Shown here: piece after piece, positions 8,011 through 56,792 of the stretch
How positions within the stretch are numbered: the stretch's first letter is position 1
Layout of the letters: the number at the start of each line of letters is the position of its first letter
Assembly: GCA_934101865.1 (NCBI GenBank)
Contig: CAKOSA010000001.1
Location: forward strand, 22,235 to 86,234
DNA: 64,000 nucleotides
Reading direction: 5' to 3'
Source of the DNA: an uncultured Bacilli bacterium
Lineage (GTDB): Bacteria > Bacillota_I > Bacilli_A > RF39 > UBA660
Position numbers and translations under genes: made by a program
Notes under the pieces: model-generated
Databases searched by the model: none
Told to the model about the DNA's origin: nothing
The model's input: the letters and a program-made list of their open reading frames with translations, nothing else

Positions 8011-8730
8011 ATGAAGGTGAATATTATTAATGTATACAAAGAATTAATAAAAAAAGAAAATATATACAACTATACAAATATAACTATTTCTTATAATTCC
8101 AGTAAAATAGAAAATAGTTCTCTTTCTCTTGACGAAACCAAAGAAATATATTACACTCCTTTTCTAACCACTACTACTAATAAAGTAATTAACCTAGATG
8201 ACCTTATCGAAATGAAAAATCATTTCAAACTATTTGATTATTGCCTAAGCATAGTAGATGCCCCTCTAACCAAAGAAATAATAATAGAGATGAATAAAAT
8301 ACTAAAAAGAAATACAAGTGATGAAGACAATCCCCGTTACAACGTCGGTGGCTTTAAAACCATTCCCAATGTAATAGGAATAATAAATGTCATTCACACA
8401 TCATCTCCCGAAGACGTTGAAAAAGACCTAGATAACTTACTAAAAAGTTATCATAATAAACAAACAATAACCCTTGAAGACATAATATATTTTCACTACA
8501 ATTTTGAAAAAATACATCCCTTTGGTTATGGAAATGGCCGTGTAGGCCGTATGATAATGTTTAAAGAATGCCTAAAAAACAATATAATGCCCTTTATCGT
8601 CCTAGATAAAGACAAACCTTATTATATGAGAGGACTAAAAAATTATAATGAAGATAAAATGTTCCTCATAGATACCATAAAATATGAACAAGACCTATAC
8701 AAAAAAATAGTAACAGAAATGATAAACTAA
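8011..8730 (+). CDS. Fic-family protein (putative AMPylase/adenylyltransferase)
   Basis: Fic motif HPFGYGNGRVGR matches HPFx[D/E]GNGRxxR except that the acidic position is Tyr. Confidence 0.8.
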   Translation: MKVNIINVYKELIKKENIYNYTNITISYNSSKIENSSLSLDETKEIYYTPFLTTTTNKVINLDDLIEMKNHFKLFDYCLSIVDAPLTKEIIIEMNKILKRNTSDEDNPRYNVGGFKTIPNVIGIINVIHTSSPEDVEKDLDNLLKSYHNKQTITLEDIIYFHYNFEKIHPFGYGNGRVGRMIMFKECLKNNIMPFIVLDKDKPYYMRGLKNYNEDKMFLIDTIKYEQDLYKKIVTEMIN

Positions 8731-8742
8731 ATAAATAACCAT

Positions 8743-8786
8743 AATATTAGTTACTTAGTATCTTCTAAATAACTAATATTTTTTTA
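8743..8786 (+). terminator. Rho-independent terminator after fic
   Basis: 16-bp inverted repeat AATATTAGTTACTTAG / CTAAATAACTAATATT with one mismatch and a 7-nt loop, followed by TTTTTTT. Confidence 0.6.
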
Positions 8787-8843
8787 AATTTTAGGTTTAC
8801 ATTTCTACTTTTATATGCTAAAATATAAACAAAGGAGGAAACT

Positions 8844-9881
8844 ATGGATAAAATAGGAAAAAATTTAAAAAAAATAAGATTACTAAAAAATCTTTCCCTT
8901 AAAGAGGCTGGCCAACTATTAGGAATGAGTGCCACCGCCATAAACAAATACGAAAAAGGATATTTAATACCAAACTCATCAAAAGTAATAGAATTTGCCA
9001 ATGCCTATAACGTAAATTGTATCGATATACTAAGAGTATACGAAGAACCAGAGTTAAAGTTTACATCATTTAAAAAGAATGAAAAATTAACCGAGAAAAA
9101 ATTAGAAGTTTTAAAAATGGTAATACAAGAAGAAGTAGCAAAATATTTAGAAGTCATAGAATTAAACTCAATAACTGCCCAAAATATCTCTCTAAGGAAA
9201 TACAAATGTAGTACACTAGAAGATGCTGAACAAGCCTCTAACAAATTTAGAGAACACATAAAACTATCAAGCAAATATCCCATATCAGATTTAATAAGCA
9301 TCCTTGAAAACCTAGGAATACTCATAATTGAACTAGAAGATAAAAATAACTACTATGAAGGGTTTGAAGGCTTTAGCGAAGTCGTAAACAACATACCCAT
9401 TATAGTTATGAAAGAAAACAGAACTGATGTCTGTAAATACAGATATACCTTAGCTCACGAACTTGCCCATCTAATTCTTAAAATAGAAAATCCCCAAGTT
9501 AACGAAGAAAAACTATGTGATAGGTTTGCTAGCAGTTTACTTATGCCCAAAGAAGCCGTAATAAACGAATTTGGAAATAATAGAAGAAACATAAGCATTT
9601 ATGAACTAGTAGTCTTTAAAATAGAATATAAAGTAAATTATAAAGATATAATAACAAGACTAAAAGAACTAAACATAATAACAGAATACCTATATAAAAA
9701 ATTAAGTACAAGTCATATTATAGATGAAGGAATAACCTTCCAACCCGAAGTATCACATCAGTTTAAAAAACTAGTTCATAAATTAGAAACTGATGATATA
9801 ATAACAATAAATAAAGCCTGTGAACTATTAGGAACTACTCCCAATGAATATAACCGAGAAAATAATAATTACAGATATTAA
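8844..9881 (+). CDS. XRE-family HTH regulator fused to an ImmA/IrrE (COG2856, DUF955) zinc-metallopeptidase domain
   Basis: N-terminal HTH_XRE (LKKIRLLKNLSLKEAGQLLGMSATAINKYEKG). The C-terminal domain carries HEXXH (YTLAHELAHLIL) in the ImmA/IrrE context. Preceded by a TTTACA - 17 - TGcTAAAAT promoter. Confidence 0.8.
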   Translation: MDKIGKNLKKIRLLKNLSLKEAGQLLGMSATAINKYEKGYLIPNSSKVIEFANAYNVNCIDILRVYEEPELKFTSFKKNEKLTEKKLEVLKMVIQEEVAKYLEVIELNSITAQNISLRKYKCSTLEDAEQASNKFREHIKLSSKYPISDLISILENLGILIIELEDKNNYYEGFEGFSEVVNNIPIIVMKENRTDVCKYRYTLAHELAHLILKIENPQVNEEKLCDRFASSLLMPKEAVINEFGNNRRNISIYELVVFKIEYKVNYKDIITRLKELNIITEYLYKKLSTSHIIDEGITFQPEVSHQFKKLVHKLETDDIITINKACELLGTTPNEYNRENNNYRY

Positions 9882-10362
9882 CATAATTACCGATTTAGAC
9901 AACGCAGGCATTTTAGAAGAATTTATAACCATAAAAAACGTATACGTAAGTGATTTAATAAAAACAGATGAACTAAATCAAAAAACTGGTAATATAAATA
10001 CAATCAAAAAGGCCAAAGTAATAAGTGCCACCGACAAGCAAGTTTTAGAAGCAGTAAACTTATCGCTTATAAATAAAAAGTTATCAATGTACGATTTATT
10101 AAATTATGTGTTAGCTAGGGACAATAATTGCATTTTAGCAACGGGTGATAATAGATTAAAACAATATGCAGAATTAAATGATGTCGAAGTAATAAGAACT
10201 CTAAAAATAATAAAATTAATGACAACGCACAGTATAATATCCAAAGAAGTTGCTATTATCTCTTGTCAAAAACTAAAAGAAAATCCAAGGACAAGAATAC
10301 CCATTAACAGCATAGAACAAGTAATCATTTCCTTAACCGAAGAATTAACATCAATTAGCTAA
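9844..10362 (+). CDS. Hypothetical protein, possibly a PIN-like nuclease; candidate toxin/effector partner of the XRE-ImmA gene
   Basis: Overlaps the preceding gene by 38 nt. First strand IIITDINII with Asp, then TDK and GDN acidic motifs spaced as in PIN folds. The assignment is tentative. Confidence 0.4.
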   Translation: MNITEKIIITDINIITDLDNAGILEEFITIKNVYVSDLIKTDELNQKTGNINTIKKAKVISATDKQVLEAVNLSLINKKLSMYDLLNYVLARDNNCILATGDNRLKQYAELNDVEVIRTLKIIKLMTTHSIISKEVAIISCQKLKENPRTRIPINSIEQVIISLTEELTSIS

Positions 10363-10476
10363 CAAAATAACTACCACCCATTTTATCAGTTGACCCTCAA
10401 TCCCAAAAAACTTTCCATTTTTAGTTTACAAAAAAACATAAATATGATATATTAAATATAGACAGTAGGTGAGTTT

Positions 10477-10791
10477 ATGAGAAGTTTTTTTAGTGCCCTA
10501 TGGCGCCTTGGAATATATGTCCTCTTAATAGTAATACTATACATCGTAATCATATACAAAGTAAAATACGAAGGAATAGAAGACCCCACTAAATACCTCT
10601 ATTTCTATAAATGCAGTGGCAATATCTGCACCACCAGTGAAACCATAACAAACTACCTCTCTAAGTACGAATGTGATAAAACATGCCCTATAGTAATAGA
10701 GTTCCAAGAAAACAGTAAAGTAGAACTCCAACACAATAACTCCATATTCACCTATAACTATGAAAAGGGAGAAATAATAAATGAAGAATAA
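10477..10791 (+). CDS. Small Cys-containing membrane-anchored protein
   Basis: 104 aa with an N-terminal TM helix and five Cys (CSGNIC, CDKTC). Overlaps the start of the TasA-like gene by 11 nt. Confidence 0.4.
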   Translation: MRSFFSALWRLGIYVLLIVILYIVIIYKVKYEGIEDPTKYLYFYKCSGNICTTSETITNYLSKYECDKTCPIVIEFQENSKVELQHNNSIFTYNYEKGEIINEE

Positions 10792-12307
10792 AAGAAAAAA
10801 TATAATAATACTATTAATATTAATACTCCTATTAACCCTAGGAATAGGCATAACCTATGCCATCTTTAAATGGACTAGTTCTAACTCTGATATAACCTTT
10901 AATATTGAAGGCTGTTATGTAACCTATGATGCCGGAGGAGATATAACAGGAGCATCCCTAGGTCCAGCCCTATCCAAAGATGATACCAATAATGTACTAT
11001 CCAAAAAAATAACCCTATCCCCAGAATGTAGTGGAGTAACAGCCAATCTTACCCTAAAAGTAAATGAGATAGCACCTGAACTAAAAAACACTTCCTTTAT
11101 ATGGTCCCTATATGAAGGAAATACCAAAGTATCAAATGGTAACTTCGCTGATGCAACTACTAATAAAGTATACACTCTTCTAAGTACTAAAACCCTAACA
11201 GAAAAAACTACTACAACTTATGCCCTCTATATCTATATAGATGGAACTGTCGATAATGATAGTAGTATGGGTGGTAAAAGTTTTAAGTTTACACTTGGAG
11301 CAAGTGGAGAGAATGCACTGCGTAAGGAGCCACCTGCTAACTTTGTAGAGGAGTTAGATGACGGAACTACTGGTGATAGCGGAAGTGGGGTGTACAAAGT
11401 ACAGCATAGCGCTATTGCGAGTGGTGGTAGTGCAACAGGTAGTGAAATACCAGCCGTAACTGATTATAGATATTATGGACCTAATCCTAATAATTATATA
11501 TGTTTAGATATGGAAGGTGGTAGTACTTGTCCTGATAAACATTTATATAGAATAATAGGAAGTATCTATGAAGAATTAGAAAATACTAAGAGAATAAAGG
11601 TAATAAAGGCAACACCTCTTACAGATGGAAATACAACAACCTATTATTGGAATAGTGACGATAATAATATTTGGGCTACTATTACTAGTGGTAATTATAG
11701 TAATAGTTTAACAAGTGGAGCAAGTTTAATGAAACTCTTAAATAGTGGGGCATGGTGGAATGGAACAAGTGCTAGTTATCATACTGAGGAGAATCCGATG
11801 GGAACTACAGTTAATTTTGCTAATTATAAATTAAGTGATAAGGCAAAGAGTTATATAACTACAAGTAGATATTATTTAGGAGGAGATAGAACAGCAAATG
11901 GAGTGATGACTAATGAATTCTACGCTTATGAAAGGGGGACTACTAGGTATGGTACGAATAGACCATTATATTGGGATGGAATGGTAGGACTTATGTATCC
12001 AAGTGATTATGGGTATGCGGCTGGTAATACTTGTGTAACGGAGACTAACTTAAGTTATTTTGCAGGGGGATATGAAAAAGAATGTATGAATAAGGATTGG
12101 CTTTATATTTCAAAGACTGATCAGTGGTTAATGTCACCTGTTTCGGGCGATTCCTACTGTGCTTTTAGCATTACCTCGAGAGGCGACATTGCTAACGGCT
12201 ACTATTCCACAGATGCTACTTCAGTCCGTCCCACCTTCTACCTCAAATCAGACATCTCCATAACTGACGGAGAAGGAACTGAGACTAATCCCTACATCCT
12301 ATCCTAA
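10781..12307 (+). CDS. TasA/camelysin-like protein with a SipW-cognate-type signal anchor, fused to a conserved about 330-aa Cys-containing C-terminal domain (paralog A)
   Basis: N-terminus KNKRK + TM + ITYAIFKW...ITFNIEG resembles SipW-cognate signals (GTFAYFSD...TFxxGTLDL). The C-terminal half shares DDGTTGDSGSGVYKV, DYRYYGxNxNNYICLDMEGxSTCPD, IKVIKATPLTDG, YWDGxVGLMYPSDYGYAAGN and RPTFYLKS blocks with the 26903..28426 protein. Confidence 0.6.
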   Translation: MKNKRKNIIILLILILLLTLGIGITYAIFKWTSSNSDITFNIEGCYVTYDAGGDITGASLGPALSKDDTNNVLSKKITLSPECSGVTANLTLKVNEIAPELKNTSFIWSLYEGNTKVSNGNFADATTNKVYTLLSTKTLTEKTTTTYALYIYIDGTVDNDSSMGGKSFKFTLGASGENALRKEPPANFVEELDDGTTGDSGSGVYKVQHSAIASGGSATGSEIPAVTDYRYYGPNPNNYICLDMEGGSTCPDKHLYRIIGSIYEELENTKRIKVIKATPLTDGNTTTYYWNSDDNNIWATITSGNYSNSLTSGASLMKLLNSGAWWNGTSASYHTEENPMGTTVNFANYKLSDKAKSYITTSRYYLGGDRTANGVMTNEFYAYERGTTRYGTNRPLYWDGMVGLMYPSDYGYAAGNTCVTETNLSYFAGGYEKECMNKDWLYISKTDQWLMSPVSGDSYCAFSITSRGDIANGYYSTDATSVRPTFYLKSDISITDGEGTETNPYILS

Positions 12308-12399
12308 TACATACATATAATACATATACATACAACCCAATATGGTACTAACCCATACCCCCTCTAACATACACTATTAATAAGAAAGAAAGTGATACT

Positions 12400-13014
12400 A
12401 TGCTAAAAAATATCTTCCTTGATGTATTTAGTGATACGTGGCCTACAATCCTAATAGCCGTCGTAATAGCCGTATCACTAAGACTAGCATATCTCCTAAA
12501 AGGACATAAAAAAATAATACTCTATAAAGAACTCCTAATGCTTATATTCATAATCTATGCTCTCTGTCTTTTCCATGTTGTAACCTATCAAGATGTGAAC
12601 TTTGGTACCAATAACTTTATTCCCTTTAAAGAGATATTTCGCTACGATTTAGGTACCCCCAAGTTTATAAAAAACATAATAGGGAATATAATAATGTTTA
12701 TTCCCTTTGGGTTCTTCGCATCCTATTTCCTCAAAAGTAAAAAGATAGGTATCCCCTTAATACTAACCATAATATTAACCACCACTATAGAAACAGTCCA
12801 GTACTATATAGGAAGAGTATTCGATATAGACGATATCATCCTAAATATAGTAGGAGGAATACTAGGCTATCTCCTCTTTATAACAATGGACTTTCTTCAA
12901 AATAAAATACCAGGATTAAAAAATAATCACATCTTAAACTTGCTAATTATCATAATAATTGTTATAATAGTCATATACGGGTTCGATATAAATATATTCG
13001 GACTATACGGATAG
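12400..13014 (+). CDS. VanZ-family membrane protein
   Basis: Four or five TM helices and the VanZ-like conserved segment (FIPFGFF...TTTIETVQYYIGRVFDIDDIILNIVGGILGY). Confidence 0.7.
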   Translation: MLKNIFLDVFSDTWPTILIAVVIAVSLRLAYLLKGHKKIILYKELLMLIFIIYALCLFHVVTYQDVNFGTNNFIPFKEIFRYDLGTPKFIKNIIGNIIMFIPFGFFASYFLKSKKIGIPLILTIILTTTIETVQYYIGRVFDIDDIILNIVGGILGYLLFITMDFLQNKIPGLKNNHILNLLIIIIIVIIVIYGFDINIFGLYG

Positions 13015-13024
13015 GGGGGATAAA

Positions 13025-13468
13025 ATGTACGATGTAATAAACAATTACGGAAAAGAAATAGAAAACTATGAAGAAATAGAAAAATATATAGAATACCTCG
13101 TCAAAGAACTAAACCTAGATAACTGTATGTTTAATATCATCTTTATAACCAATAAAGAAATCCATAAAATAAATAAAGAATATAGAAAAGTAGATAGACC
13201 AACAGATGTCATATCCTTTGCCCTTGAAGACAATAAAGATATCGAATACAAAGACTTTAGACTACTAGGAGATATCTATATATCCGTAGATAGAGCCATA
13301 GAACAAGCAAGAGATTATAACCACTCCCTAAAAAGAGAACTATGCTTCCTATCAACCCACGGTATCCTTCATCTTCTCGGATATGATCACCAAACAAAAA
13401 AAGAAGAAGAAATAATGTTTACTAAACAAAAGGAGCTATTAGAAAAATATGGAATACAAAGGAACTAA
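13025..13468 (+). CDS. ybeY: Endoribonuclease YbeY (rRNA maturation)
   Basis: HxxxHxxxxxH zinc motif (HGILHLLGYDH). 147 aa. Conserved ybeY-dgkA linkage. Confidence 0.9.
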   Translation: MYDVINNYGKEIENYEEIEKYIEYLVKELNLDNCMFNIIFITNKEIHKINKEYRKVDRPTDVISFALEDNKDIEYKDFRLLGDIYISVDRAIEQARDYNHSLKRELCFLSTHGILHLLGYDHQTKKEEEIMFTKQKELLEKYGIQRN

Positions 13469-13829
13469 AAAAAGAACATTTAAAAACAGTGTTAAAGATT
13501 GCCTTGATGGCATAAACTTTGTTCTAAGTAATGAAAGAAATTTTGTAAGAGAAATAATAATGGGAATGATAGCCCTTACGCTATGCGTGTTTTTAGAAGT
13601 ATCCCCTTATGAATACATAACAATCCTATTACTAATCTGTTTTGTCCTCATAATGGAACTAATAAACACTGCCTTAGAGAAAGTAGTAGACCTATATACA
13701 ACCCAGTATAACGAACTAGCCAAGATAATAAAGAATGTCTCCGCTGCCTCTGTCTTAATAATGTGTACATTCTCAGCAATAATAGGAATAATAATCTTTT
13801 TACCAAAAATACTCAATATTATTAGATAA
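13449..13829 (+). CDS. dgkA: Diacylglycerol/undecaprenol kinase DgkA
   Basis: 126 aa, three TM helices, DgkA-type conserved N-terminal block (NFVREIIMG). Overlaps ybeY. Confidence 0.8.
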   Translation: MEYKGTKKRTFKNSVKDCLDGINFVLSNERNFVREIIMGMIALTLCVFLEVSPYEYITILLLICFVLIMELINTALEKVVDLYTTQYNELAKIIKNVSAASVLIMCTFSAIIGIIIFLPKILNIIR

Positions 13830-13891
13830 CCTCTAATAATATTTTATCATAAATAAAACTTGCTTTAATCAATATTTAGTAAGGAGAAAAT

Positions 13892-14476
13892 ATGAAAATA
13901 AAACTAAACAAAAACTATGTAAAACTAGTATTACCCTATATCCTAGTAACAACCACTATCTATTCATCAAGATATCTAATAACAGATAAACTCCCCCTTA
14001 TAAGAAATAAAGAAGAAATAAATACCAAAGATGTACTAATATTAGGAGAAAAACCAAGCCAAGGTTCCTATTATGAAACCCTAGATAATAAACCAAACCA
14101 AGTACGCCTCTATACAAAATGTATCCCCCATAATAATAAATACAAACTACAAGGCTACCTCTATACATTTAATAAATATAATGAAGAAGAACTACAGATA
14201 GCCCTAGAAAACCAAGATGAAGCCCATATAAAAGAAATATTAGGACCACCCAAAAAAATAGAAAGAGAAGTATCAGAAGAAATAAAAACCCCATATATAG
14301 AAGGAATAATATTCAAAGATTCAAATACACCCACCCTAATAAAAGAAAGCCTTCCCGAAACCATTTTAAACAATACCTTTCTAATAGCCACATCCATAGT
14401 AGCATCAAAACTAATAAATGAAGTCGCCTATATAATAAAAGAAAGAAAAGAATACAAAAAAACTCCCAAAAATTAA
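13892..14476 (+). CDS. Hypothetical protein with an N-terminal TM anchor
   Basis: ORF with a GGAGA RBS and an N-terminal hydrophobic helix. No known domain. Confidence 0.4.
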   Translation: MKIKLNKNYVKLVLPYILVTTTIYSSRYLITDKLPLIRNKEEINTKDVLILGEKPSQGSYYETLDNKPNQVRLYTKCIPHNNKYKLQGYLYTFNKYNEEELQIALENQDEAHIKEILGPPKKIEREVSEEIKTPYIEGIIFKDSNTPTLIKESLPETILNNTFLIATSIVASKLINEVAYIIKERKEYKKTPKN

Positions 14477-14546
14477 CTTTACTAAACTTTTTGTTTGCAT
14501 TTACAAAAATATATGCTATAATATATACGTTTGAAAGAGGATTATT

Positions 14547-15572
14547 ATGAGAACTGAAGATTTTGATTACAATTTACCCCCCGAATTAATTGCCCAAACA
14601 CCCCTAGAAAAAAGAGATAACTCAAAACTAATGGTGCTTGACAAAGAAACCGGAGAGGTAAAACACGAAACATTTAAAAACATTATAAACTATTTAGATA
14701 AAGGAGACGTCCTTGTCTTAAACGATACCAAAGTATTACCAGCTCGCCTTATAGGAACCAAAGAAGAAACCGGTGCCACTATTGAACTACTACTATTAAA
14801 TAACGTTCTCGACCATACTTGGAAGGCCCTAGTAAAACCAGGAAAAAGAGTAAAAAAAGGGACCATAGTTACCTTTGGTGAAGGAATGCTAAAAGCAAAA
14901 TGCATCGAAGAATTAGAAGACGGTATAAAAAAATTCCAATTAATATACGAAGGAGTACTACTCGAAATATTAGATAAACTAGGGACAATGCCCCTTCCAC
15001 CATATATTCACGAAAAACTCCAAGATAAAGACCGTTACCAAACCATATACGCCAAAAATACCGGAAGTGTCGCAGCTCCAACCGCTGGATTACACTTTAC
15101 CCAAGAATTACTAGACCAAATAAAAAATAAAGGCATAGAAATATGCTTTGTAACACTCCACGTTGGTATAGGCACATTTAGACCCGTATCCGTAGAAGAC
15201 GTAACCAAACACAAAATGCACAGTGAGTATTATAATATGAATAAAGAAACAGCAAGTATCCTAAATAAAGCTAAGGAAGAAGGAAGAAGAATAATATCCG
15301 TAGGTACCACGACAACTAGAGTACTAGAAACAATAATGACAAAATACAATACATTTAAAGAATGCTATGGTGATACCGATATCTTCATATATCCAGGCTA
15401 TAAATTCAAGGCCATAGACGCTTTAATAACCAATTTTCACTTACCAAAGTCAACCCTAATAATGCTTGTTAGTGCTTTTAGTTCCAAAGAAATAATACTA
15501 AATGCCTATAATGAGGCTGTCAAAAACAATTACCGCTTTTTCTCTTTTGGAGACAGTATGTTCATAAAATAA
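14547..15572 (+). CDS. queA: S-adenosylmethionine:tRNA ribosyltransferase-isomerase QueA
   Basis: Canonical QueA N-terminus ([27 protein letters not shown]) and length of 341 aa. Confidence 0.95.
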
Positions 15573-15593
15573 CTAAAAGAAAGGGGGGACCAA

Positions 15594-17306
15594 ATGATAA
15601 CAAATGAAATAGTTAACGAAATAAGAGCCAAAACCGATATCGTAAGTGTCATATCAGCTTATCTCCCCTTAACAAAAAAAGGCAAAAACTACTTTGGAGT
15701 ATGCCCCTTTCACGATGACCATTCCCCCTCAATGAGTGTCTCCCCCGATAAACAAATATATACCTGTTTTTCGTGTGGAGCCTCAGGAAACGTTTTTAAC
15801 TTCGTATCAAGTTATGAACACATAACATATTACGAAGCCGTAAAACTACTAGGAGAACGCTTAGGATACAATATAAACACATCCCCCAAAGAAAAAAAAG
15901 ACGATATAAGTTATGAAATATATGATAAAGCGTGCAAATTTTATCAAAATAACATAAATACCACTCTTGGAAAAAATGCAATCGAATATTTACACAGTAG
16001 ACAAATAAACGATGAACTAATAAATAAGTTCAAAATAGGCCTATCAATGACCAAAGTATCCCTAACCGAATATCTTCTCGGAAGCGGTTATGAACTAAAC
16101 AAACTAATAAATATAGGCCTTACAAATGAACAAACCAAAGATATCTTTTTAAATAGAATAATGTTTCCCTTATTCGATTTAAAAGGAAATGTTGTGGCCT
16201 TCTCCGGAAGAATATACAATACCAAAGATGGAAGCAAATACGTAAATACCAAAGAAACAAATATCTTTAAAAAAGGAACAATGCTCTATAATTACCATAA
16301 TGCCCGTGAACACCTAAAAGTAAACGATACCATTATCGTAATGGAAGGCTTTATGGATGTCATAAGAGCATACTCAATAGGAGTTGTAAGTTGTGTTGCA
16401 ACTATGGGAACCGCCTTAACTAAACAAAATGCCCTTAACTTAAAGAAAATGGCTACCAATATTATCCTCTGTTTTGACGGTGATAAAGCCGGTGAAGAAG
16501 CAACCACTAAGGCCATTAAAATCTTTGAAGAAATAGATGTAGTACCCAAAGTAGTAAGATTAGAAGATAACTTAGATCCCGATGAATACATTCTAAGCCG
16601 TGGTAAAGAAAGCTTTCTAGCCAAAATAAATAATCCCATTAGCACATTAGAATTCAAAATGAATATCTATAAAGGAAACAAAAACTTTACCGATGTTGAA
16701 GAAATATCCAAATACATAAACGAAGCCTTAAAAGAATTATCAAAATTAGATGATGAACTATTAAAAGAATTAACCATAAAAAAATTAGAAAAAGAATATG
16801 GGGTGGGATACGATGTATTAAAAAAGAAACTACAAAGTTTTGAAGTAATAAAACCAAAAGACTTGCCAAAAGCCGTAATAAAACCCAAAAGTTATGGAAA
16901 ATACGAAACCGCTCAACGAAATCTCTTATACTATATGATTAAAGAAAAAGAAGTCCTAGAATACGTTGAAGAAAAATTATCATACTTTCCCAATGATAAT
17001 TTACGCTTTTTAGCAAATGAAATATTTACATTTTATCATAAATATGGTATTCTAGTAGTCGCCGACTTTATAACAAGTTTAGTAAATGAAGAAGAACTGT
17101 ATAAAATATTCCAAGAAATAATCAGTATGAATTTAAAAGAAAAATATACTAAAGAAGAAATCGACGACTATATATACCTTATAAACGAATACCCCAAGAA
17201 AAATAAAATAAACAAACTCGAAGAAGAACTGCGAAAAGAACCAGACCCAATAAAAAAAGCTCAGATATTAAGTAAGATAATGGAAATAAAAGGAGTGAGA
17301 AAATGA
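15594..17306 (+). CDS. dnaG: DNA primase DnaG
   Basis: Zinc-binding [13 protein letters not shown]...CFSCG motif, a TOPRIM domain (EGFMDV...DGDKAG), 570 aa, and the dnaG-sigA operon arrangement. Confidence 0.95.
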
Positions 17307-18403
17307 TAGAGGAAATAAAAAGCTTTGAGGATAGAAAAGAAGAACTAATAAAACAAGGAAAAGAAAAAGGCTATGTAACTTACGAAGAAATAGCCAAAGG
17401 ATTAAAAGGCCTCGATTTAGATAGCGATTCCCTTGATGACTTATACAATAGTTTTATGGAAAACAATATCCAAGTAGCAACAGATGAAGATATGGTAGGG
17501 GAGACTGAAGACGAAGATGAAGGAGGAGACTTTGAAGACCTCTTAAAAGATAGTACTCTTGCCAAAGAACTAACCATAAATGATCCCGTTAGAATGTATC
17601 TAAAAGAAATAGGTAAAATAAGTTTACTTTCCCTCGAAGAAGAAACCGCTTTATCAGAAAGAATAGTGGCCGGTGATGAAGAAGCCAAAAATATCTTAGC
17701 CGAATCAAACCTCCGTTTAGTAGTATCAATAGCCAAAAGATACGTAGGACGTGGTATGCTATTTTTAGACTTAATTCAAGAAGGAAACATTGGTCTTATG
17801 AAAGCCGTTGAAAAATTTGATGCCGAAAAAGGATACAAATTCTCAACTTATGCCACTTGGTGGATTAGACAAGCCATAACCCGTGCTATTGCTGACCAAG
17901 CCAGAACAATAAGAGTACCCGTACATATGGTTGAAACAATAAATAGATTATCACGTTTCCAAAGACAATTAACACTTGAATTAAATAGAGAACCAACCGA
18001 AGAAGAACTAGCCAAAAAAATGCACCTTTCTGTCGATAAAGTAAGAGAAGTAATAAAAATCGCCCAAGAACCCGTATCATTAGAAACTCCAATAGGTGAA
18101 GAAGACGATTCACACTTAGGTGACTTTGTCAAAGACGAAAGAAGTATGTCTCCGGAAGAATTCACTGTCCACGAAATGCTCAAAGATGAAATCTTTGATG
18201 TCCTTCTTACCCTAACCGAAAGAGAAGAACAAGTTCTAAGACTAAGATTTGGACTAGATGACGGTTCTTGTAAAACCCTTGAAGAAGTAGGGCAAATGTT
18301 TGGTGTAACCCGTGAAAGAATTAGACAAATAGAAGCCAAAGCCCTAAGAAAATTAAGGCACCCATCAAGAAGTAGAAAACTAAAGGACTTCTTAAATGAT
18401 TAA
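17303..18403 (+). CDS. sigA: RNA polymerase primary sigma factor (SigA/RpoD)
   Basis: Acidic region 1, region 2 ([36 protein letters not shown]), regions 3 and 4. Start overlaps dnaG by 4 nt. Confidence 0.95.
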
Positions 18404-19061
18404 AATATCAAAAAGACTAAAAGCAATTGCCGACCTCGTTCCCGATAACAGTACTACTTGTGATGTAGGTTGTGATCACGCCCTACTTGATATATATTTA
18501 TATCAAACAAAAAAAAATATCAAATTAATAGCTTCTGATATCAATAAAAATGCCCTCTCTGGAGCCATTAAAAATATCAAGAAATATAACTTAGAAGATA
18601 AAATACAAACAGTAGTATCCGATGGATTAAAAAATTTACCCCTAAATAATATCGATACCATAATAATATCCGGTCTCGGTTCCGCTACTATAATAAATAT
18701 CCTAAAAAAAGAATACCTATCCAATATAAAAAACATAATAATATCATCTCATAACCACACCGAAGAAGTAAGGGAGTATATGCAAAAATTAAATTACTGT
18801 ATTGAAGAAGAAACAATTATAAAAGAAAACAATATCTATTATATTCTACTAAAATACAAAAACAGTAATCAAAAACTAACAAAATTTGCAAAACAGTATG
18901 GACCCATCATCCTAAAACAACAAAGAAAAATAGATACAGAGTATTTAAATAATATATTAGATACCAAAAAGAAACTATATACAAAATTACCAAAAGGAGA
19001 AAAAAAGTCCCAATTAAAAAAAGAAATAAACTACTTAGAGAAGCAAACTACCTATAAATAA
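18396..19061 (+). CDS. trmK: tRNA (adenine22-N1)-methyltransferase TrmK (YqfN family)
   Basis: N-terminal [10 protein letters not shown]...DVGCDHALL motif of TrmK. Position downstream of sigA as in Bacillus. Confidence 0.8.
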
Positions 19062-19172
19062 CTTAGGTAGTTTTACTTAGTAAAATACTGAAAATTTAAT
19101 GAAAAAAAACAAAAAATAGTTGCATAATTAAAACTATTAATATATAATGAAAAAAGACCAAAAGGAGGAAAT

Positions 19173-20933
19173 ATGATAAAACTATTAAAAAAATTAAAAC
19201 CCAAACAATGGCTATATATACTATTTTGTGTAGCTCTAATCGTTTTACAAGTATATCTAGATCTAAAACTACCCGACTATATGGCTAGTATAACAAAGAT
19301 AGTACAAACCGAAGGAAGTTTAGTCAAAGACGTACTTGGCGAAGGAGCCAAAATGCTCATTTGTGCCTTTGGAAGTTTACTATCCGCTGTTGTTGTTAGC
19401 TATTTTGTAACCAAAGTAGCAGCTACCTTTTCCCGTGATTTAAGAAAAGATATCTTTGAAAAAGTACTATCATTTAGTATGGAAGAAATCAAAAACTTTT
19501 CAACCAGTAGCCTAATCACAAGAACAACTAACGATATAACCCAAGTCCAAATGCTAATAGCAATGGGTATGCAAATGCTTATAAAAGCCCCCATTATGGC
19601 TGTATGGGCAATAATGAAAATATATGGCAAAGGCTTTGAATGGAGTGTCATAACCGCTGGAGCTGTCGGAATACTCCTAATAATGATACTAATACTAGTA
19701 CTAGTAGCCTTACCAAAGTTCAAGATAATACAAAAATTAACCGATAATCTAAACCATACATCAAGAGAAAACCTAACCGGAATAAGAGTAGTAAGAGCCT
19801 TCAATGCCGAGAAATATCAAGAAGGAAAGTTTGCAAGTGCCAATAACGAACTAACCAAAACCAATATGTTTACATCAAGAACAATGGCTCTTCTAACCCC
19901 AGGTATGCAGCTCATAATGTCAGGACTATCCCTTTCCATATATTGGGTTGGAGCCTATATGATAAATGATGCCGGTATGTTAGATAAACTAACCATATTC
20001 AGTAATATGGTCGTATTCTCATCTTATGCAATGCAAGTAGTAATGTCATTTATGATGTTAACAATGATCTTTATATTCTATCCCCGTGCTCAAGTATCCG
20101 CTAAAAGAATACTAGAAATACTAGAAAAAAAACCAAAAATAGTATCTGGAGTATTCAGTGGAAAAACCAAAGAAACAGGAACAATAGAATTTAAAGATGT
20201 AACATTTAGATACCCAGATGCCGAAGAAAATATGCTTGAAAACATATCATTCAAAGTCGAAAAAGGAGAAACAGTAGCCTTTATCGGATCAACAGGTTCC
20301 GGAAAATCAACCCTAGTTAACCTCATACCAAGATTCTATGACGCCACTTATGGTGAAGTATTAGTAGACGGAGTAAACGTAAAAAACTATAAACTAGAAG
20401 AACTAAATAATCGTCTTGGCTATGTATCCCAAAAGCCAATAATATTTTCAGGAACAGTATCATCAAACATATCTTACGGATTAGTAAATAACAAAAAAGT
20501 ATCAAAAAGTAAGATAGAAGAAGCAAGTAAAGTAGCCCAAGCCAGTGAATTTATCGAAAAAATGGAAGACAAATACAATTCCAGTATCTCAAGATCAGGA
20601 ACCAATATATCAGGTGGACAAAAACAAAGACTATCAATAGCCCGTGCTATTGCTAGAGATCCCGAAATATATATCTTTGACGATACCTTCTCAGCACTAG
20701 ATTACAAAACCGATACCACTCTTAGAAAAGAATTAAAAAAACACACCAAAGATGCCACAACCCTAATAGTAGCCCAAAGAATAGGAACTATCAAAAATGC
20801 CGATAAAATAATCGTTCTAAATGAAGGAAAAATAGTAGGACAGGGAACACACAAAGAACTATTAAAAACCTGTGATGTTTATAAAGAAATAGCCCTATCC
20901 CAGTTAAGTAAGGAGGAACTCGAAAATGCATAA
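19173..20933 (+). CDS. ABC exporter permease/ATPase subunit of a heterodimer, with a degenerate ATP site (Walker B ...FDD, H-loop Gln)
   Basis: Six-TM domain plus NBD. Walker A GSTGSGKST. Signature ISGGQKQRLSIARA. Walker B IYIFDDTFSALD has D in place of the catalytic E. H-loop AQR in place of AHR. Confidence 0.85.
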   Translation: MIKLLKKLKPKQWLYILFCVALIVLQVYLDLKLPDYMASITKIVQTEGSLVKDVLGEGAKMLICAFGSLLSAVVVSYFVTKVAATFSRDLRKDIFEKVLSFSMEEIKNFSTSSLITRTTNDITQVQMLIAMGMQMLIKAPIMAVWAIMKIYGKGFEWSVITAGAVGILLIMILILVLVALPKFKIIQKLTDNLNHTSRENLTGIRVVRAFNAEKYQEGKFASANNELTKTNMFTSRTMALLTPGMQLIMSGLSLSIYWVGAYMINDAGMLDKLTIFSNMVVFSSYAMQVVMSFMMLTMIFIFYPRAQVSAKRILEILEKKPKIVSGVFSGKTKETGTIEFKDVTFRYPDAEENMLENISFKVEKGETVAFIGSTGSGKSTLVNLIPRFYDATYGEVLVDGVNVKNYKLEELNNRLGYVSQKPIIFSGTVSSNISYGLVNNKKVSKSKIEEASKVAQASEFIEKMEDKYNSSISRSGTNISGGQKQRLSIARAIARDPEIYIFDDTFSALDYKTDTTLRKELKKHTKDATTLIVAQRIGTIKNADKIIVLNEGKIVGQGTHKELLKTCDVYKEIALSQLSKEELENA

Positions 20934-22707
20934 TCACGAAAATAACGATAATCAAGTAAAAGACTTCAAAAAAGCCATAACAACCCTTCTAAAAAACTGT
21001 AAACCATATAAAACACCCATCATCATAGTAATGATTCTATCAGCCCTAGCAAGTGCCTTAGGAGTATATGGGCCAGGAAGATTAAAAGAAATAACCGATA
21101 CCATTACAGAAGGAATAATGACAGGAATAGACTTAAGTAAAGTAACCAAAATAGCCATTACCCTAACCATAGTATACACACTAAGTTGGCTTTTCAACTG
21201 CTTAGCAGGCTTCATAATGGCTACAGTTACCAATAAATTTTCTCAAAAACTAAGAAAAAACCTTTCCCATAAAATAAATAAACTACCCCTAAAATACTTC
21301 GATAAAAACAGTTATGGAGATGTATTATCAAGAATAACTAATGATGTAGATACAATTGGCCAGTCCCTAAACAATAGTATCAGTGACTTTGTAGGTGCCA
21401 TTACCCTCTTTATAGGTTCAATAATAATGATGTTTGCAACCAACTGGATAATGGCCATAACCGGAATAGTAGCCAGTCTAATCGGCTTTGCTCTAATGAT
21501 TGTAATACTATCCAAAAGCCAAAAATACTTCCTTCTTCAACAACAAGAGTTAGGAGAACTAAACGGTCATATCGAGGAAGTATACTCAGGCCACGATGTC
21601 GTAACTGTTTATAACGCTAATAAAGAAACAACCCAAAAGTTCGATGAGATAAACAATAAACTATACGATAGTGCTCGTAAAAGTAGATTTCTATCCGGAC
21701 TTATGATGCCCCTAATGAGCTTTATCGGATCATTCGGATATGTGGCTGTATGCGTGGTAGGAGCAGCCCTTGTTATAAACGGAAATATAACCTTTGGCGT
21801 AATAGTAGCCTTTATGATATACATAAGACTATTCACAAATCCGCTAAGTACAATCGCCCAAGCAATGACCTATATGCAGTCAACTGCTGCCGCATCAGAA
21901 AGAGTATTCGACTTCCTAGATGAAGAAGAAATGCCAAGCGAAAGAAATATTACCAAAAAATTACTACCCGAAGAAGTAAAAGGAAACGTTATCTTTGACC
22001 ACGTAAAATTTGGCTATGACGAAGACAAAATAATCATAAAAGACTTCTCAGCTAATATCAAAGCCGGTTCTAAGGTTGCTATCGTTGGCCCTACGGGAGC
22101 CGGTAAAACAACGATGGTTAACTTACTTATGAAGTTTTACGATATAAATTCCGGTGATATCAAAATAGATGACATATCCGTAAAGGACCTAACCAGAGAA
22201 AACGTTCACGACCTCTTTGTAATGGTACTTCAAGATACTTGGCTCTTTAAAGGCACAATCAAAGATAACATTAGATTTAATAGAGAAAATATAACAGATG
22301 AAGAGATAAAGAAAGCGTGTAAAACCGTTGGGATGGACCACTACATAAGATCCCTCTCCAAAGGATACGACACAATGCTTGAAGAAGTAGATAACCTTTC
22401 TGCTGGACAAAAACAATTACTAACAATAGCCCGTTGTATGACAAGTTCAGCCCCATTGTTAATATTAGATGAAGCAACATCATCAGTAGATACTAGAACC
22501 GAAGAACTAGTCCAAAAAGCAATGGATAAACTAACTGAGGGCAAAACATCCTTTATAATAGCCCATCGATTATCTACAATCAAAAATGCTGATTTAATTT
22601 TAGTTATGAACGAAGGTAACATCATTGAACAAGGTAATCACGAAGAATTACTAAAACAAGACGGTTTCTATGCTAAATTATATAATTCCCAATTTGAAAA
22701 TGTGTAA
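20926..22707 (+). CDS. ABC exporter permease/ATPase subunit, the partner with a canonical catalytic site
   Basis: Walker A GPTGAGKTT, signature LSAGQKQ, Walker B LLILDEATSSVD, H-loop IAHRLST. Overlaps the upstream subunit gene by 8 nt. Confidence 0.85.
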   Translation: MHNHENNDNQVKDFKKAITTLLKNCKPYKTPIIIVMILSALASALGVYGPGRLKEITDTITEGIMTGIDLSKVTKIAITLTIVYTLSWLFNCLAGFIMATVTNKFSQKLRKNLSHKINKLPLKYFDKNSYGDVLSRITNDVDTIGQSLNNSISDFVGAITLFIGSIIMMFATNWIMAITGIVASLIGFALMIVILSKSQKYFLLQQQELGELNGHIEEVYSGHDVVTVYNANKETTQKFDEINNKLYDSARKSRFLSGLMMPLMSFIGSFGYVAVCVVGAALVINGNITFGVIVAFMIYIRLFTNPLSTIAQAMTYMQSTAAASERVFDFLDEEEMPSERNITKKLLPEEVKGNVIFDHVKFGYDEDKIIIKDFSANIKAGSKVAIVGPTGAGKTTMVNLLMKFYDINSGDIKIDDISVKDLTRENVHDLFVMVLQDTWLFKGTIKDNIRFNRENITDEEIKKACKTVGMDHYIRSLSKGYDTMLEEVDNLSAGQKQLLTIARCMTSSAPLLILDEATSSVDTRTEELVQKAMDKLTEGKTSFIIAHRLSTIKNADLILVMNEGNIIEQGNHEELLKQDGFYAKLYNSQFENV

Positions 22708-25468: not shown

Positions 25469-26659
25469 ATGAAAGTCATAATAGATCCCGCTAGGGGAGG
25501 AAACGATACCGGAGTAAGTGGGGGAGGAATAACCGAAAAAGATTGGAACCTCACCATATCAAAATACATCTACAATATCCTCAAAAATAATGGCATCGAA
25601 GCCTACCTAACTCGAACTGAGGATATCGATATTCCTGAAGCCGAGCGGGCTACTAAAATAAAAAACTACGCCGCCTCATCAAACGATATCATCGTTATAT
25701 CCAATCGCCTAAATGAAGGTAAAGACGATGGAGCCGAAATCATCTATCCATTAAGAAGTACTGATAACCTCGCCAAAGCCCTTGCCACCGCCCTCGAAAA
25801 TACAGGTCAAAACGTAAACAAATACTATCAACGACGCCTCCCATCCGATCTTGCCTCCGACTACGACTACATAATAAGAAACACCTCTCCCTACGAAACC
25901 CTCATCATAAACTACGGCTATGTCGATAGCCCTGAGGACGATGTAACCCAGTTAAAAAACTATCAACGCTTAGGTGACGCCATTGCAAGTGCTATCATAT
26001 CTCGCGTGTCTTCTAGCGGTACTTACACCGTAAAAACCGGCGATACCCTTTACAGTATTGCCAAGAAATATAACGTCTCCGTAAACGCTCTCAAAACCCT
26101 AAACAACCTCTCCACAAATACCCTTAGAGTAGGCCAAAAACTAAAAATCCCCGCCCAAGAAACCACAACCCCTTCTGCTCCTACCACTCCAAGTACAAAT
26201 ACCTATACCGTAAAAAGAGGCGATACTCTCTATGGGATAGCCCGTGATAATAACACCACTGTCGATACCCTCAAAAGCCTCAATAACCTCACCACCACTA
26301 ACCTAAGTATAGGCCAAACTATAAAACTACCAACTTCCTCCTCATCACCTTCCGGCACCCCCAATACCCTAACATACACCATAAAAAAAGGCGACACTCT
26401 CTACGGCATAGCCACCAAATATAATACCACCATCTCCGCCATCAAATCCCTAAACAATCTTGACACCAACACCCTAACCATTGGCAAAACCCTCAAAATC
26501 CCCACCACCACTTCCTACACAACCTATACCGTGAAAAAAGGCGATAACCTCTATACCATAGCCCGTAAATATAACACCACCGTAAACAATCTCGTTAACC
26601 TAAACAACCTCAAAACCACCACCCTCTCTATCGGTCAAACCCTCAAAGTCCCCCTCTAA
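25469..26659 (+). CDS. N-acetylmuramoyl-L-alanine amidase (Amidase_3) with five C-terminal LysM repeats
   Basis: MKVIIDPARGGNDTGVSG amidase_3 N-terminus. Five repeats of the form YTVKxGDTLYxIAxKYNxxxxxLxxLNNL..xxLxxGQxLKIP. Confidence 0.85.
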   Translation: MKVIIDPARGGNDTGVSGGGITEKDWNLTISKYIYNILKNNGIEAYLTRTEDIDIPEAERATKIKNYAASSNDIIVISNRLNEGKDDGAEIIYPLRSTDNLAKALATALENTGQNVNKYYQRRLPSDLASDYDYIIRNTSPYETLIINYGYVDSPEDDVTQLKNYQRLGDAIASAIISRVSSSGTYTVKTGDTLYSIAKKYNVSVNALKTLNNLSTNTLRVGQKLKIPAQETTTPSAPTTPSTNTYTVKRGDTLYGIARDNNTTVDTLKSLNNLTTTNLSIGQTIKLPTSSSSPSGTPNTLTYTIKKGDTLYGIATKYNTTISAIKSLNNLDTNTLTIGKTLKIPTTTSYTTYTVKKGDNLYTIARKYNTTVNNLVNLNNLKTTTLSIGQTLKVPL

Positions 26660-26833: not shown

Positions 26834-26902
26834 ACTAAACCCCTTGCAAATACCCCCATTATATGATAAAATTTACTTATATTAAAGTAAGAGGTGAATA
26901 TA

Positions 26903-28426
26903 GTGGACACTACCAATAATAAAAGAAAACTAATCCTATCCCTAGTCCTACTAACATCAGTAGTACTACTAGGAACCTTTGCTTGGTACGTATGGTCAAG
27001 TAAAGAAAATACCAGTATGAACGTAACAATTGGGGAACTAGCCGATGTAACCTTTAAAACCGGAACCGATATAAATATAACCAATCTATCCCCAAGTTTT
27101 AACTATGATGACGGAGCCCTAACCGAGTTCTCCATAAAGAAAAAGAAAGACCTAACTACGGAACTAAATACTAACATATATCTAGATATCACTTCCATAT
27201 CCGATAGCCTAAAATCATCAGCCTTCAAATATGAATTACTAAGTAGTAGTGACGGTAATACATATAATAGTGTAGCTAGTGGTAACTTCCAAGACGCATC
27301 CGTAGGTAAATTAAATATATTAACCGATACCCCCCTAGCTGATAACAGAACCTATTATAAACTATATATCTGGATAGATGGTAATGAAGAAAATGATACA
27401 TCTATGCAATCCAGTAGTATGAAAGGGGTATTAAATGTAAATGTATCTACACCTCCGGTTAATGCCATAACCCTAGTTGAGGGGTTAGACGATGGTACCA
27501 CAGGGGATAGTGGAAGTGGAGTATATAAGGTAGAACACGACGCTATTGCGAGTGGTAATAGTGCTACGGGTAATGAAATAAAAGCTACTACTGATTATAG
27601 ATATTATGGTGCTAATGCTAATAACTATATATGCTTAGATATGGAAGGACAGAGTACTTGTCCAGATAGAGGCTTATTTAGGATAATAGGAAGTATTTAC
27701 GAAGAAAATGCTGGTACTAATTTAATTAAGGTAATAAAGGCCACACCCTTAACAGATGGAACAACTAGTACATTTAGTTGGGATTATACTTCAAGTGGCA
27801 CTTATAAAAATATATGGTCTAGTACCACTAGTGGAACGAGTAGTGGGGCCACACTAATGCAATTATTAAATGGTATATATTTAACCAGAGGCTCAGGTAG
27901 TTACTATAATGGTAGTACAACAGCAACAACAATTGATTTTAGTAATACAGGATTAACAGATGTTGCTCAAAGTTTAATGAATACTGGTAAAAGTAATAAT
28001 GGATTAAGTAAATATTATTTAGGGGGATATTCAGATACAAGCTTAAAAACTGATGCCATATATTTAGCAGAAAGAGGCAAGGCAACTAGTAGTGGTAATG
28101 CCTTATACTGGGATGGAAAAGTAGGCTTAATGTATCCAAGTGATTATGGGTATGCAGCGGGAAATGATTGTGTTACTAATACAGCTCCTTATGATTATAA
28201 TGGTGGATGTCGCGATAAAGATTGGTTATATAGAAGTAATAGTTATGAGTGGACACTTACGCCATACGCCTCTGTCACGTTTGGCGTGTGGCTCGTGTAC
28301 AATGGTCACGCGGGCTACGACCGTTCGAGCGGTCCGATCGGTTCCCGCCCCACCTTCTATCTCAAATCTAACATCTCTGTAACAGGCGGAACAGGCACCT
28401 CTTCTGATCCCTATACAGTGGAATAA
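26903..28426 (+). CDS. TasA/camelysin-like protein with a SipW-cognate-type signal anchor, fused to the conserved Cys-containing C-terminal domain (paralog B)
   Basis: Signal anchor KRKLILSLVLLTSVVLLGTFAWYVWSSKENTSMNVTIGEL. INITNLSPS resembles the TasA/CalY NLSNLKPGD block. The C-terminal half is homologous to the 10781..12307 protein. Start chosen as GTG 26903, 5 nt after AGAGGTGA; the ORF-track start 26894 lies inside the RBS. Confidence 0.6.
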   Translation: MDTTNNKRKLILSLVLLTSVVLLGTFAWYVWSSKENTSMNVTIGELADVTFKTGTDINITNLSPSFNYDDGALTEFSIKKKKDLTTELNTNIYLDITSISDSLKSSAFKYELLSSSDGNTYNSVASGNFQDASVGKLNILTDTPLADNRTYYKLYIWIDGNEENDTSMQSSSMKGVLNVNVSTPPVNAITLVEGLDDGTTGDSGSGVYKVEHDAIASGNSATGNEIKATTDYRYYGANANNYICLDMEGQSTCPDRGLFRIIGSIYEENAGTNLIKVIKATPLTDGTTSTFSWDYTSSGTYKNIWSSTTSGTSSGATLMQLLNGIYLTRGSGSYYNGSTTATTIDFSNTGLTDVAQSLMNTGKSNNGLSKYYLGGYSDTSLKTDAIYLAERGKATSSGNALYWDGKVGLMYPSDYGYAAGNDCVTNTAPYDYNGGCRDKDWLYRSNSYEWTLTPYASVTFGVWLVYNGHAGYDRSSGPIGSRPTFYLKSNISVTGGTGTSSDPYTVE

Positions 28427-28449: not shown

Positions 28450-28474
28450 CTACCCCCTAGTAGGGTAGTTTTTC
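28450..28474 (+). terminator. Rho-independent terminator after TasA-like paralog B
   Basis: CTACCC-CCTAGTA-GGGTAG hairpin followed by TTTTT. Confidence 0.6.
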
Positions 28475-41602: not shown

Positions 41603-41744
41603 GATGATATTCTTTTTTTTAAAAAATATCAAAAAATAAAACAAATGTATTGACAAGTAATTAAAATAGTAATACAATATACAAGCAAGTTTAAAAACAG
41701 CCAACCAGTTAGATGAGGGGGCAACAAATAAGGAGGCAATAAGT

Positions 41745-42701: not shown

Positions 42702-42703
42702 AA

Positions 42704-43377: not shown

Positions 43378-43938
43378 GTGAAAGATCAAACCGACAAAAA
43401 AAATATGTATTATGTAATAATGCTCGTTATGACATTAATAATAATGCTAATAGGAGTAACATTTGCCCTTTATGGAATACTAAAATCAGCCAAAGAAGAT
43501 TCCACCAAACTATATACCGGTAAAATAGAAATTAATTACAAAGATGGAACCTATATCAAAAATCCAAACTTATGGCCAACTACCGAACCATCCTTTTCAG
43601 TAACATCTGACAAAGTATACAAAAATAACTTTTCAGTAATAAGTAGCAGTACTATTGACCAAACAATTGATGTAAAATTAAATATAAATATTAACGAATT
43701 TTCTTCGGACGCCATAAAATATTCCCTTTATAATTCCAAGGGAGATAAACTAAATACCGGAACTGTTCCAAATAATGGAAGCATTACAATTTTGTCAAAT
43801 AACTATCTAGCCAAAGATGCTGTCGCCGATTACACACTAATAATATGGCTTGATGAAAAAAACTATAATCAAAATAATGAACAAGGGAAAAAATTACAAG
43901 CCACCATTGAAGTAAATGCACAGCAAATCAAATACTAA
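43378..43938 (+). CDS. TasA/camelysin-like protein with a SipW-cognate-type signal anchor (short paralog C, N-terminal domain only)
   Basis: KKNMYYVIMLVMTLIIMLIGVTFALYGILKSAKEDSTKLYTGKIEINY signal. YIKNPNLWPTTEPSFS resembles the TasA NLSNLKPGD block. The domain end YTLIIWLDEKNY parallels YALYIYIDG in paralog A and YKLYIWIDG in paralog B. Confidence 0.55.
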   Translation: MKDQTDKKNMYYVIMLVMTLIIMLIGVTFALYGILKSAKEDSTKLYTGKIEINYKDGTYIKNPNLWPTTEPSFSVTSDKVYKNNFSVISSSTIDQTIDVKLNININEFSSDAIKYSLYNSKGDKLNTGTVPNNGSITILSNNYLAKDAVADYTLIIWLDEKNYNQNNEQGKKLQATIEVNAQQIKY

Positions 43939-44746: not shown

Positions 44747-45007
44747 ATGGAAACACTAAAAGTATCATCAAAGTCAAATCCAAGTTCAGTAGCTGGAGCA
44801 TTAGCCAATGTTTTTAGAGAGAAAGACAGCGTAGAAGTGCAAGCCGTAGGAGCAGGAGCCCTTAATCAGGCCATAAAAGCTATAGCTATTGCTAGAGGTT
44901 TTGTTGCACCTACCGGAAAAAATCTCGTTTGCATTCCAGCATTTACCGATATAACCATCGACGGAGACGAACGAACCGCTATAAAACTAATCGTAGAGGC
45001 AAAATAA
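44747..45007 (+). CDS. spoVS: Stage V sporulation protein S
   Basis: 86 aa, near-identical in pattern to Bacillus SpoVS as recalled (LKVSSKSNPSSVAGALA...GAGALNQAIKAIAIARGFVAP...CIPAFTDI..DG.ERTAIKLIVE). Confidence 0.9.
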   Translation: METLKVSSKSNPSSVAGALANVFREKDSVEVQAVGAGALNQAIKAIAIARGFVAPTGKNLVCIPAFTDITIDGDERTAIKLIVEAK

Positions 45008-45077
45008 CCTCTTTTTTTCATATAATTGCCCATTCTCAAATCTAGGAAAAACATACTATATAGGGAAGGGAGAAAAA

Positions 45078-51267: not shown

Positions 51268-51283
51268 AAAAGGGGGGAGAAAT

Positions 51284-56763: not shown

Positions 56764-56792
56764 AAAAAAATATGATATAATTAACTTGTAGT

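Follow-up and report, generated by a model that had tools for sequence, protein, structure and literature searches.

Strain-variable C-type-lectin-like heads on a family of candidate surface-binding proteins in uncultured gut Bacilli

What might two large, related proteins, each with an N-terminal signal region, do for an uncultured bacterium of the gut, and how does a third, shorter relative belong with them? The question is raised by a stretch of 64,000 nucleotides from an uncultured Bacilli bacterium (contig CAKOSA010000001.1; the whole stretch is called the window below, and has a G+C content of 33%), in which three open reading frames (ORFs), here A, B and C, had been read in a first-pass annotation as TasA/camelysin-like proteins. 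Our answer, given with moderate confidence, is that A and B are exported, adhesin- or receptor-like surface proteins that bind a ligand, made by an uncultured gut member of the Bacilli with a small genome. Most likely they join known modules in a new way, and their domains are not of an unknown kind. The genes and their parts are as follows (aa, amino acids).

Gene A, 10781..12307, plus strand: ORF of 508 aa, with signal or anchor, jelly-roll N-domain and DUF6273-like head
A residues 1-27, 10781..10861, plus strand: KNKRK n-region and hydrophobic helix of about 20 residues ending GIGITYA; candidate T-x-A signal-peptidase site
A residues 28-180, 10862..11320, plus strand: beta-sandwich (jelly-roll) N-domain, common to A, B and C
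A residues 201-508, 11381..12304, plus strand: predicted enlarged C-type-lectin-like head of the DUF6273 kind
A residues 421-480, 12041..12220, plus strand: head block with the lowest conservation among A-orthologs
Gene B, 26894..28426, plus strand: ORF of 510 aa, paralog with the architecture of A
Parts of B: residues 1-30 form the signal (…LLGTFA) and residues 31-192 the N-domain; the head begins at about residue 207 (nucleotide 27512) and runs to the end
Gene C, 43378..43938, plus strand: ORF of 186 aa, with signal or anchor (…IGVTFA) and N-domain, head-less

A, B and C are real ORFs and homologous to each other. Along their whole length A and B share 52% identity; the alignment of C is confined to the first 180 residues or so, at 23% identity. 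In hhalign, C and four of its relatives align to a 36-sequence N-domain alignment over 171 columns with 99.4% probability (E 3.7e-21), and a hidden Markov model (HMM) of the mature N-domain matches exactly three ORFs of the window: A, B (E 7e-36) and C (E 2.7e-15). B is also matched by the C-domain HMM. The three N-domains share a mutual identity of just 23-38%, and their genes are spread across 33 kb. The exact A protein is present on eight contigs of a public collection, which also holds the exact B protein; relatives of C are few, all of 185-186 aa. The three-member family proposed earlier is thus upheld, and the sequence blocks quoted for A and B were all found in both proteins. Two details needed correction. 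The ORF of B, placed at 26903, is real and begins at 26894; the GTG at 26903 lies in frame, three codons further downstream, and is preceded by a good GAGGTG. Instead of six conserved cysteines, A has seven and B four, with four positions in common (A241/B247, A250/B256, A418/B426 and A435/B439), and in the wider family the second cysteine pair alone is nearly invariant.

The identity of the head was approached through its relatives and through its fold. An exhaustive HMMER search with residues 185-508 of A against 1.84 billion cluster representatives (cutoff E ≤ 1e-3) retrieved 3,366 clusters; many are proteins of about 480-530 aa with the A/B layout, others are large and multi-domain, carrying two to six copies, and others again are truncated or single-domain proteins. 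The Pfam family DUF6273 is matched by 12 of 52 and by 12 of 48 diverse relatives (best E 7e-15). A itself scores 18.7 bits against this profile (PF19789; E 0.0017; residues 416-490 on profile positions 100-172), below the gathering cutoff of 23.5; B does not match it, and neither did any of ten relatives selected for mapping the DUF6273 region in a Pfam run. A first AlphaFold2 (AF2) model, calculated from orthologs 69-83% identical, had a mean predicted local distance difference test score (pLDDT) of 50 and was discarded. From 48 diverse relatives, A was modelled with a mean pLDDT of 86.7; most of the head is above 90, residues 4-24 form a helix and residues 23-57 are of low confidence. With this model, Foldseek matched PDB entry 9qa6 (E 9e-6), and the best fold matches in a library of viral structures are proteins named 'DUF6273 domain-containing'. 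As modelled, the A/B head has both the DUF6273 fold, as solved or annotated, and the core of a domain of the C-type-lectin-like kind (CTLD); an extra Cys-x8-Cys insert is present in the head of the A/B clade. The family profile does not find the 9qa6 sequence. According to the model, the A/B head is an enlarged CTLD of the DUF6273 kind. The C-terminal domain that had seemed unassignable therefore maps, by way of AF2 and Foldseek, to a catalogued family with a solved representative; what the family offers is a lectin-like fold and not a characterised function. In part, then, the case that the first-pass annotation had named as a refutation, a C-terminal domain belonging to a well-known family, has been found. 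The description as an undescribed surface protein family can be kept for the two-domain architecture, which has neither a name nor a Pfam annotation in the database rows returned and for which no describing paper was found, but not for the head.

DUF6273 has been described in two other settings. In Faecalibacterium phages (PMC10743442, PMC11792537) it is a C-lectin-like receptor-binding module, diversified by diversity-generating retroelements (DGRs), and its C-terminal end is where the variable regions lie. In the IgA protease of Thomasclavelia ramosa, to which 9qa6 belongs, the N-terminal domain of 291 residues is a CTLD of enlarged size that holds a structural zinc (PMC12402451, PMC12237041), and forms the N-terminal part of a sortase-anchored surface protease (PMC12237041). 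With respect to both, the sequence likeness is distant, A being sub-threshold, B unmatched and 9qa6 missed by sequence search. The domain also takes a different place in each: in A and B it is C-terminal, behind a jelly-roll, in the protease it is N-terminal, and in the phages it sits on a tail protein. Two further binding domains, CTLD/FGE-like (FGE, formylglycine-generating enzyme), invite comparison, namely Treponema TvpA and the C-terminal domain of Legionella Lcl (DUF1566); the A/B head is about twice as large, with big decorations, and sequence similarity is undetectable.

Could the head be an enzyme, for instance an FGE-like or a peptidase-associated catalytic domain? One relative weakly matches the Pfam family FGE-sulfatase (E 3e-4), the nearest solved homolog belongs to a protease, and the block GLMYPSDYGYA may resemble the FGE/DUF1566 core motif. 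However, A and B matched no catalytic family, hypervariability (described below) would be unusual in an active-site domain, and the homologous domain of the IgA protease is non-catalytic and dispensable (PMC12237041). A catalytic head is, in our judgement, very improbable. The partners of the head in other proteins are Flg_new, fn3, PKD, Big_2, VWA and LRR domains, with up to six head copies per protein, and in P0228, P0232, P0242, P0253 and P0254, from other gut Bacilli, the head follows a type IV (pseudo)pilin N-terminus (KGFTLxE). The prepilin motif G/F-T-L-x-E is not present in the N-termini of A, B and C. Pilin genes were also observed near family genes at several loci (L065, 4479-8003).

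A further clue to function comes from comparison between strains. The nearest of the 80 best relatives surveyed below, the near-conspecific metagenome-assembled genome (MAG) HGM10819 (locus L002), was compared at the DNA level in 300-nucleotide bins from 8587 to 21400. Identity is 97-99.7% in the flanks, the upstream overlapping ORF and the N-domain of A, and falls to 70-82%, with insertions and deletions, from 11287 to 12487, the sole strongly divergent stretch in about 13 kb; around residues 421-480 of A it is about 70%. The same division is seen among 69 orthologs, which are on average 89% identical to A in the N-domain (maximum 98.7%) and 72% in the head (maximum 77%). The consensus fraction of the A-orthologs is 0.41-0.60 at residues 421-480 and about 0.9 elsewhere; these residues occupy the part of the fold where the variable regions of the phage proteins sit. 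Between family proteins the similarities of the two modules are discordant (P0127, N-domain 47% and head 74%; P0158, 68% and 44%, respectively), which points to an exchange of modules. Since the heads vary so sharply between strains, the most likely role of A and B is that of variable binding proteins at the cell surface.

Another possibility is that the head is a DGR target or derived from a phage: gut phages frequently have DUF6273 as the target of a DGR (PMC10743442, PMC11792537), and the best viral fold matches of the model are DUF6273 proteins. No DGR is present near A or B: the window contains no template/variable repeat pair, the repeats that touch A reflecting paralogy with B only, and no ORF with the YxDD reverse-transcriptase motif, and a DGR at the A locus was rejected for lack of both. 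Moreover, the divergence covers the whole head and includes insertions and deletions, instead of a short adenine-specific variable region, and the setting is core chromosome. We consider this origin the least probable of all those weighed here.

The N-terminal signal region bears on how the proteins reach and stay at their place. In the family, basic residues are followed by about 20 hydrophobic ones and then by G-x-[ST]-[FYW]-A-x-aromatic; in A, B and C the ends, with a slash after the candidate cleavage site, read GIGITYA/IF, LLGTFA/WY and IGVTFA/LY. Of 114 representatives that begin with a hydrophobic helix, 62 have the [ST][FYW]A motif at the helix end (shuffled mean 5.4, maximum 12 in 200 shuffles), the remainder having mostly near variants, and some relatives have canonical-looking signals (…GVGITFAYFTSG… and …GASFAYFTAN…). 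With E values up to 1 allowed, neither the Peptidase_M73 (PF12389) nor the TIGR04088 profile matches any of the three proteins. Among 48 diverse relatives, two are weakly matched by TIGR04088 (best E 0.0096) and one by PF12389, at 18.8 bits (cutoff 22.5) and over residues 3-95 only.

For a direct comparison, authentic TasA/CalY sequences were gathered with TasA and CalY queries; the TasA query was validated by its top match, Bacillus subtilis TasA with 99% identity, and every sequence gathered carries PF12389. With the signal kept, hhalign aligned the N-domain profile to this set with 76.6% probability (E 2e-5; residues 1-80 of A on TasA 1-73); with the signal helix removed, the probability fell to 1% (28 columns with E 0.052, against E 0.26-1 in the reverse and shuffle controls). 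The residual alignment falls at the equivalent place in TasA, the first strands (donor-strand region) and an N-L-x-P turn. When the model of the A N-domain is compared with known folds, TasA scores the same as unrelated jelly-rolls, with low TM-scores, and pilin domains are among the Foldseek matches. Among the sequences of the PDB, neither TasA nor 9qa6 was recovered by phmmer or by a profile search; at this distance, sequence methods are blind. Because the match drops from 76.6% to 1% when the signal is removed, we assign the signal region, as judged from its sequence, to the TasA/CalY class, family membership not being demonstrated. Of the likeness to TasA and to SipW-dependent export noted earlier, the signal motif alone stands, family-wide; the beta-rich domain is modelled as a jelly-roll beta-sandwich, but neither significant homology of the mature body nor a match of A, B or C to the M73 or SipW-signal profiles was found.

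As noted earlier, no SipW-type signal peptidase gene lies in the window. Motif (regex), phmmer and tblastn searches, with unvalidated SipS and SipW queries, detected no signal peptidase I in the 64-kb window or in the 80 family loci with 10-kb flanks, and clustering of the 827 neighbouring ORFs gave housekeeping genes only and no conserved partner. A linked S26 signal peptidase or sortase partner was accordingly rejected.

These results decide how much weight can be given to a TasA-like fibre. The N-domains would polymerise by donor-strand exchange, as in TasA and the archaeal bundling pili, after SipW-type cleavage by a peptidase encoded elsewhere; C would form the shaft, with A and B as alternative subunits that bear the heads, at the tip or decorating the fibre. 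It is established that TasA assembles by way of a donor strand at the N-terminus (PMC9674648, PMC9245690). The geometry and motif of the signal fit the TasA/CalY class, the mature N-terminus has its best local match to TasA at the equivalent position, residues 23-57 of A are of low confidence in a monomer model, and, besides the short paralog C, N-only genes stand in tandem with two-domain genes at four loci (L008, L019, L038 and L058). Short single-domain paralogs and a jelly-roll body are further likenesses to TasA/CalY. Against such a fibre, A, B and C are unmatched by the two family profiles, the mature domain reaches a probability of only 1% against TasA/CalY, its structural score is no better than for unrelated jelly-rolls, neither the window nor the 10 kb around each of the 80 loci holds a sipW- or tapA-like partner, the three genes are dispersed across 33 kb, and their N-domains are just 23-38% identical to each other. 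A and B also add a lectin-like head of 300 residues, which TasA lacks. As there is neither specific support from the mature domain nor a linked sipW, we regard the fibre as possible but unlikely. Its fullest form, a Gram-positive TasA-like fibre with a C-like shaft and with A and B presenting interchangeable, strain-specific CTLD heads, diversified by head swapping and not by a retroelement, is likewise doubtful. It would be, by analogy, a functional counterpart in uncultured gut Bacilli of the chaperone-usher tip adhesins PapG and FimH, in which a lectin domain is joined to a pilin domain and the shaft pilins have a single domain, much as C has one module and A and B add a lectin-like head. 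In A and B, however, the order of the domains is reversed, and these are Gram-positive bacteria with no chaperone or usher; homology is not claimed.

We return to the surface-binding reading of A and B. The sequence link to DUF6273, the known roles of that domain, its surface-module partners, the hypervariability limited to the head, the signal helix with its [ST][FYW]A motif and the presence of several, often tandem, paralogs all lead to it. The N-terminal signal or signal-anchor of TasA/CalY class would direct export, with putative cleavage at the T-x-A site; the jelly-roll of about 150 residues may serve as stalk or assembly module, and the CTLD head of about 300 residues would carry the binding site and act as specificity module. 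The head would be swapped or diversified between strains and paralogs, the N-domain and the chromosomal backbone remaining constant, and C would be a paralog of the N-domain module that has no head. Surface location, a binding role and the kind of ligand are inferred, as are export and cleavage; the homology of the three proteins, their fold assignments, the distribution of the family, the hypervariability of the head and the lack of a linked peptidase are results of the analysis. Several points weigh against it. The homologous CTLD of the IgA protease is dispensable for IgA cleavage and without a demonstrated ligand (PMC12237041). LPXTG, lipobox or any other wall anchor was not found in the proteins; cleavage of the signal would leave their tether to the cell unexplained, and without cleavage a membrane-anchored protein of 500 residues may stay inside the Gram-positive wall. 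The divergence of heads between strains could be the product of recombination without selection for binding diversity, and the architecture of A and B is known from sequence and models alone.

The distribution of the family was surveyed by scanning one genome per species, which gave 585 relatives. Of the best 80 of these 585, whose loci were analysed, nearly all belong to MAGs of uncultured gut 'Bacilli' or 'Tenericutes', with several paralogs to a genome. Clostridium sp. CAG:451, Candidatus Ventrenecus avicola and one closed chromosome of 1.52 Mb are also among these 80. Besides the tandem arrangements of N-only and two-domain genes, pairs of two-domain genes occur in tandem at L006, L027, L048 and L053. 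An ENA metagenome contig encodes a protein identical to A in a core setting: obg, a tRNA methyltransferase gene and sua5, followed by vanZ, ybeY, dgkA, queA, dnaG and sigA. The features nearest to A and B in the window are listed here.

Membrane ORF, 10477..10791, plus strand: 104 aa, with an N-terminal membrane helix and four cysteines; overlaps the start of A by 11 nucleotides
Promoter-like site, 10425-10453: upstream of the 104-aa ORF, from a consensus scan
Promoter-like site before B, 26844..26872, plus strand: TTGCAA, 17 nucleotides, TG-TAAAAT, from a consensus scan
Terminator-like hairpin and T-tract just past B, 28450..28468, plus strand: from a consensus scan

The 104-aa ORF is called as a gene on contig L001 and is 100% identical in L001 and L002; it has no Pfam match, and no homolog was found beside other family genes. 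It is possibly co-transcribed with A. The promoter and terminator scans gave no more sites than shuffled sequences, and the promoter-like site of B is weak evidence for that reason. Just upstream of A are a Fic-domain gene (about 8011-8730), a gene with HTH_3 and Peptidase_M78 domains (ImmA/IrrE-like) and then a weak PIN-domain ORF (8844-10362 for the two together). The region of the latter (about 9890-10359) is absent from L001, which is otherwise 99.4% identical, and is therefore a small strain-specific insertion.

Directly upstream of B lies a gene with an Amidase_3 domain and four LysM repeats (25469-26659); four direct repeats of 131 nucleotides within it (26021-26652) are its LysM modules. 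C is preceded on the same strand by two ORFs without Pfam match (41745-43294). One, of 318 aa, has a coiled-coil-like N-terminus and a membrane segment; the other is of 196 aa. They may share a transcript that starts from a promoter-like site at 41650-41678, which agrees with the consensus at 11 of 12 positions. After C come spoVS and a CotJ-like ORF (44747-45575), so the lineage, for all its small genome, keeps sporulation genes; spoVS adjoins family genes at five loci (L072 among them). Further away, a sortase-like ORF with a TLITC motif (50632-51267) lies between ORFs of 431, 298 and 845 aa (49350-54822), which may form a sortase-dependent surface-protein or pilus cluster. An AT-rich intergenic motif ending TATGATATAAT recurs at 19092-19151, 32177-32222, 56725-56784 and 59498-59557; it is probably a common extended -10 promoter architecture.

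Some of these neighbours would suit a protein that serves the cell's own envelope: an uncleaved helix would anchor it in the membrane, and the head would bind peptidoglycan or an envelope glycopolymer of the same cell during growth or sporulation. The hydrophobic segment of about 20 residues can span a membrane, a wall-anchoring motif is absent, B adjoins the LysM-bearing amidase gene, C and other family genes adjoin spoVS, and housekeeping genes are all around. These associations are weak and unconserved, however; the conserved T-x-A at the helix end resembles a cleavage site, and a difference of 20-30% between the heads of near-identical strains fits a conserved self target poorly. We judge an envelope role of this kind rather improbable; like the enzymatic head and the retroelement or phage origin, it is less likely.

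The significance of the family is moderate, and stems chiefly from the variability between strains that is restricted to the head, a new observation here, in a combination unnamed in the databases examined and in an uncultured gut lineage. That lineage is known solely from human and animal gut MAGs, with chromosomes of about 1.3-1.5 Mb. With a lectin-like head as the only hypervariable stretch of a near-identical backbone, this multi-paralog family is a strong candidate for surface recognition that differs by strain, or else for a target of phages or of the immune system. It also provides a second cellular context for DUF6273, besides the phage receptor-binding proteins and the IgA protease, with diversification that proceeds without a DGR. 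If the N-domains do assemble in the manner of TasA, donor-strand fibres would be extended to the display of adhesins in Gram-positive commensals.

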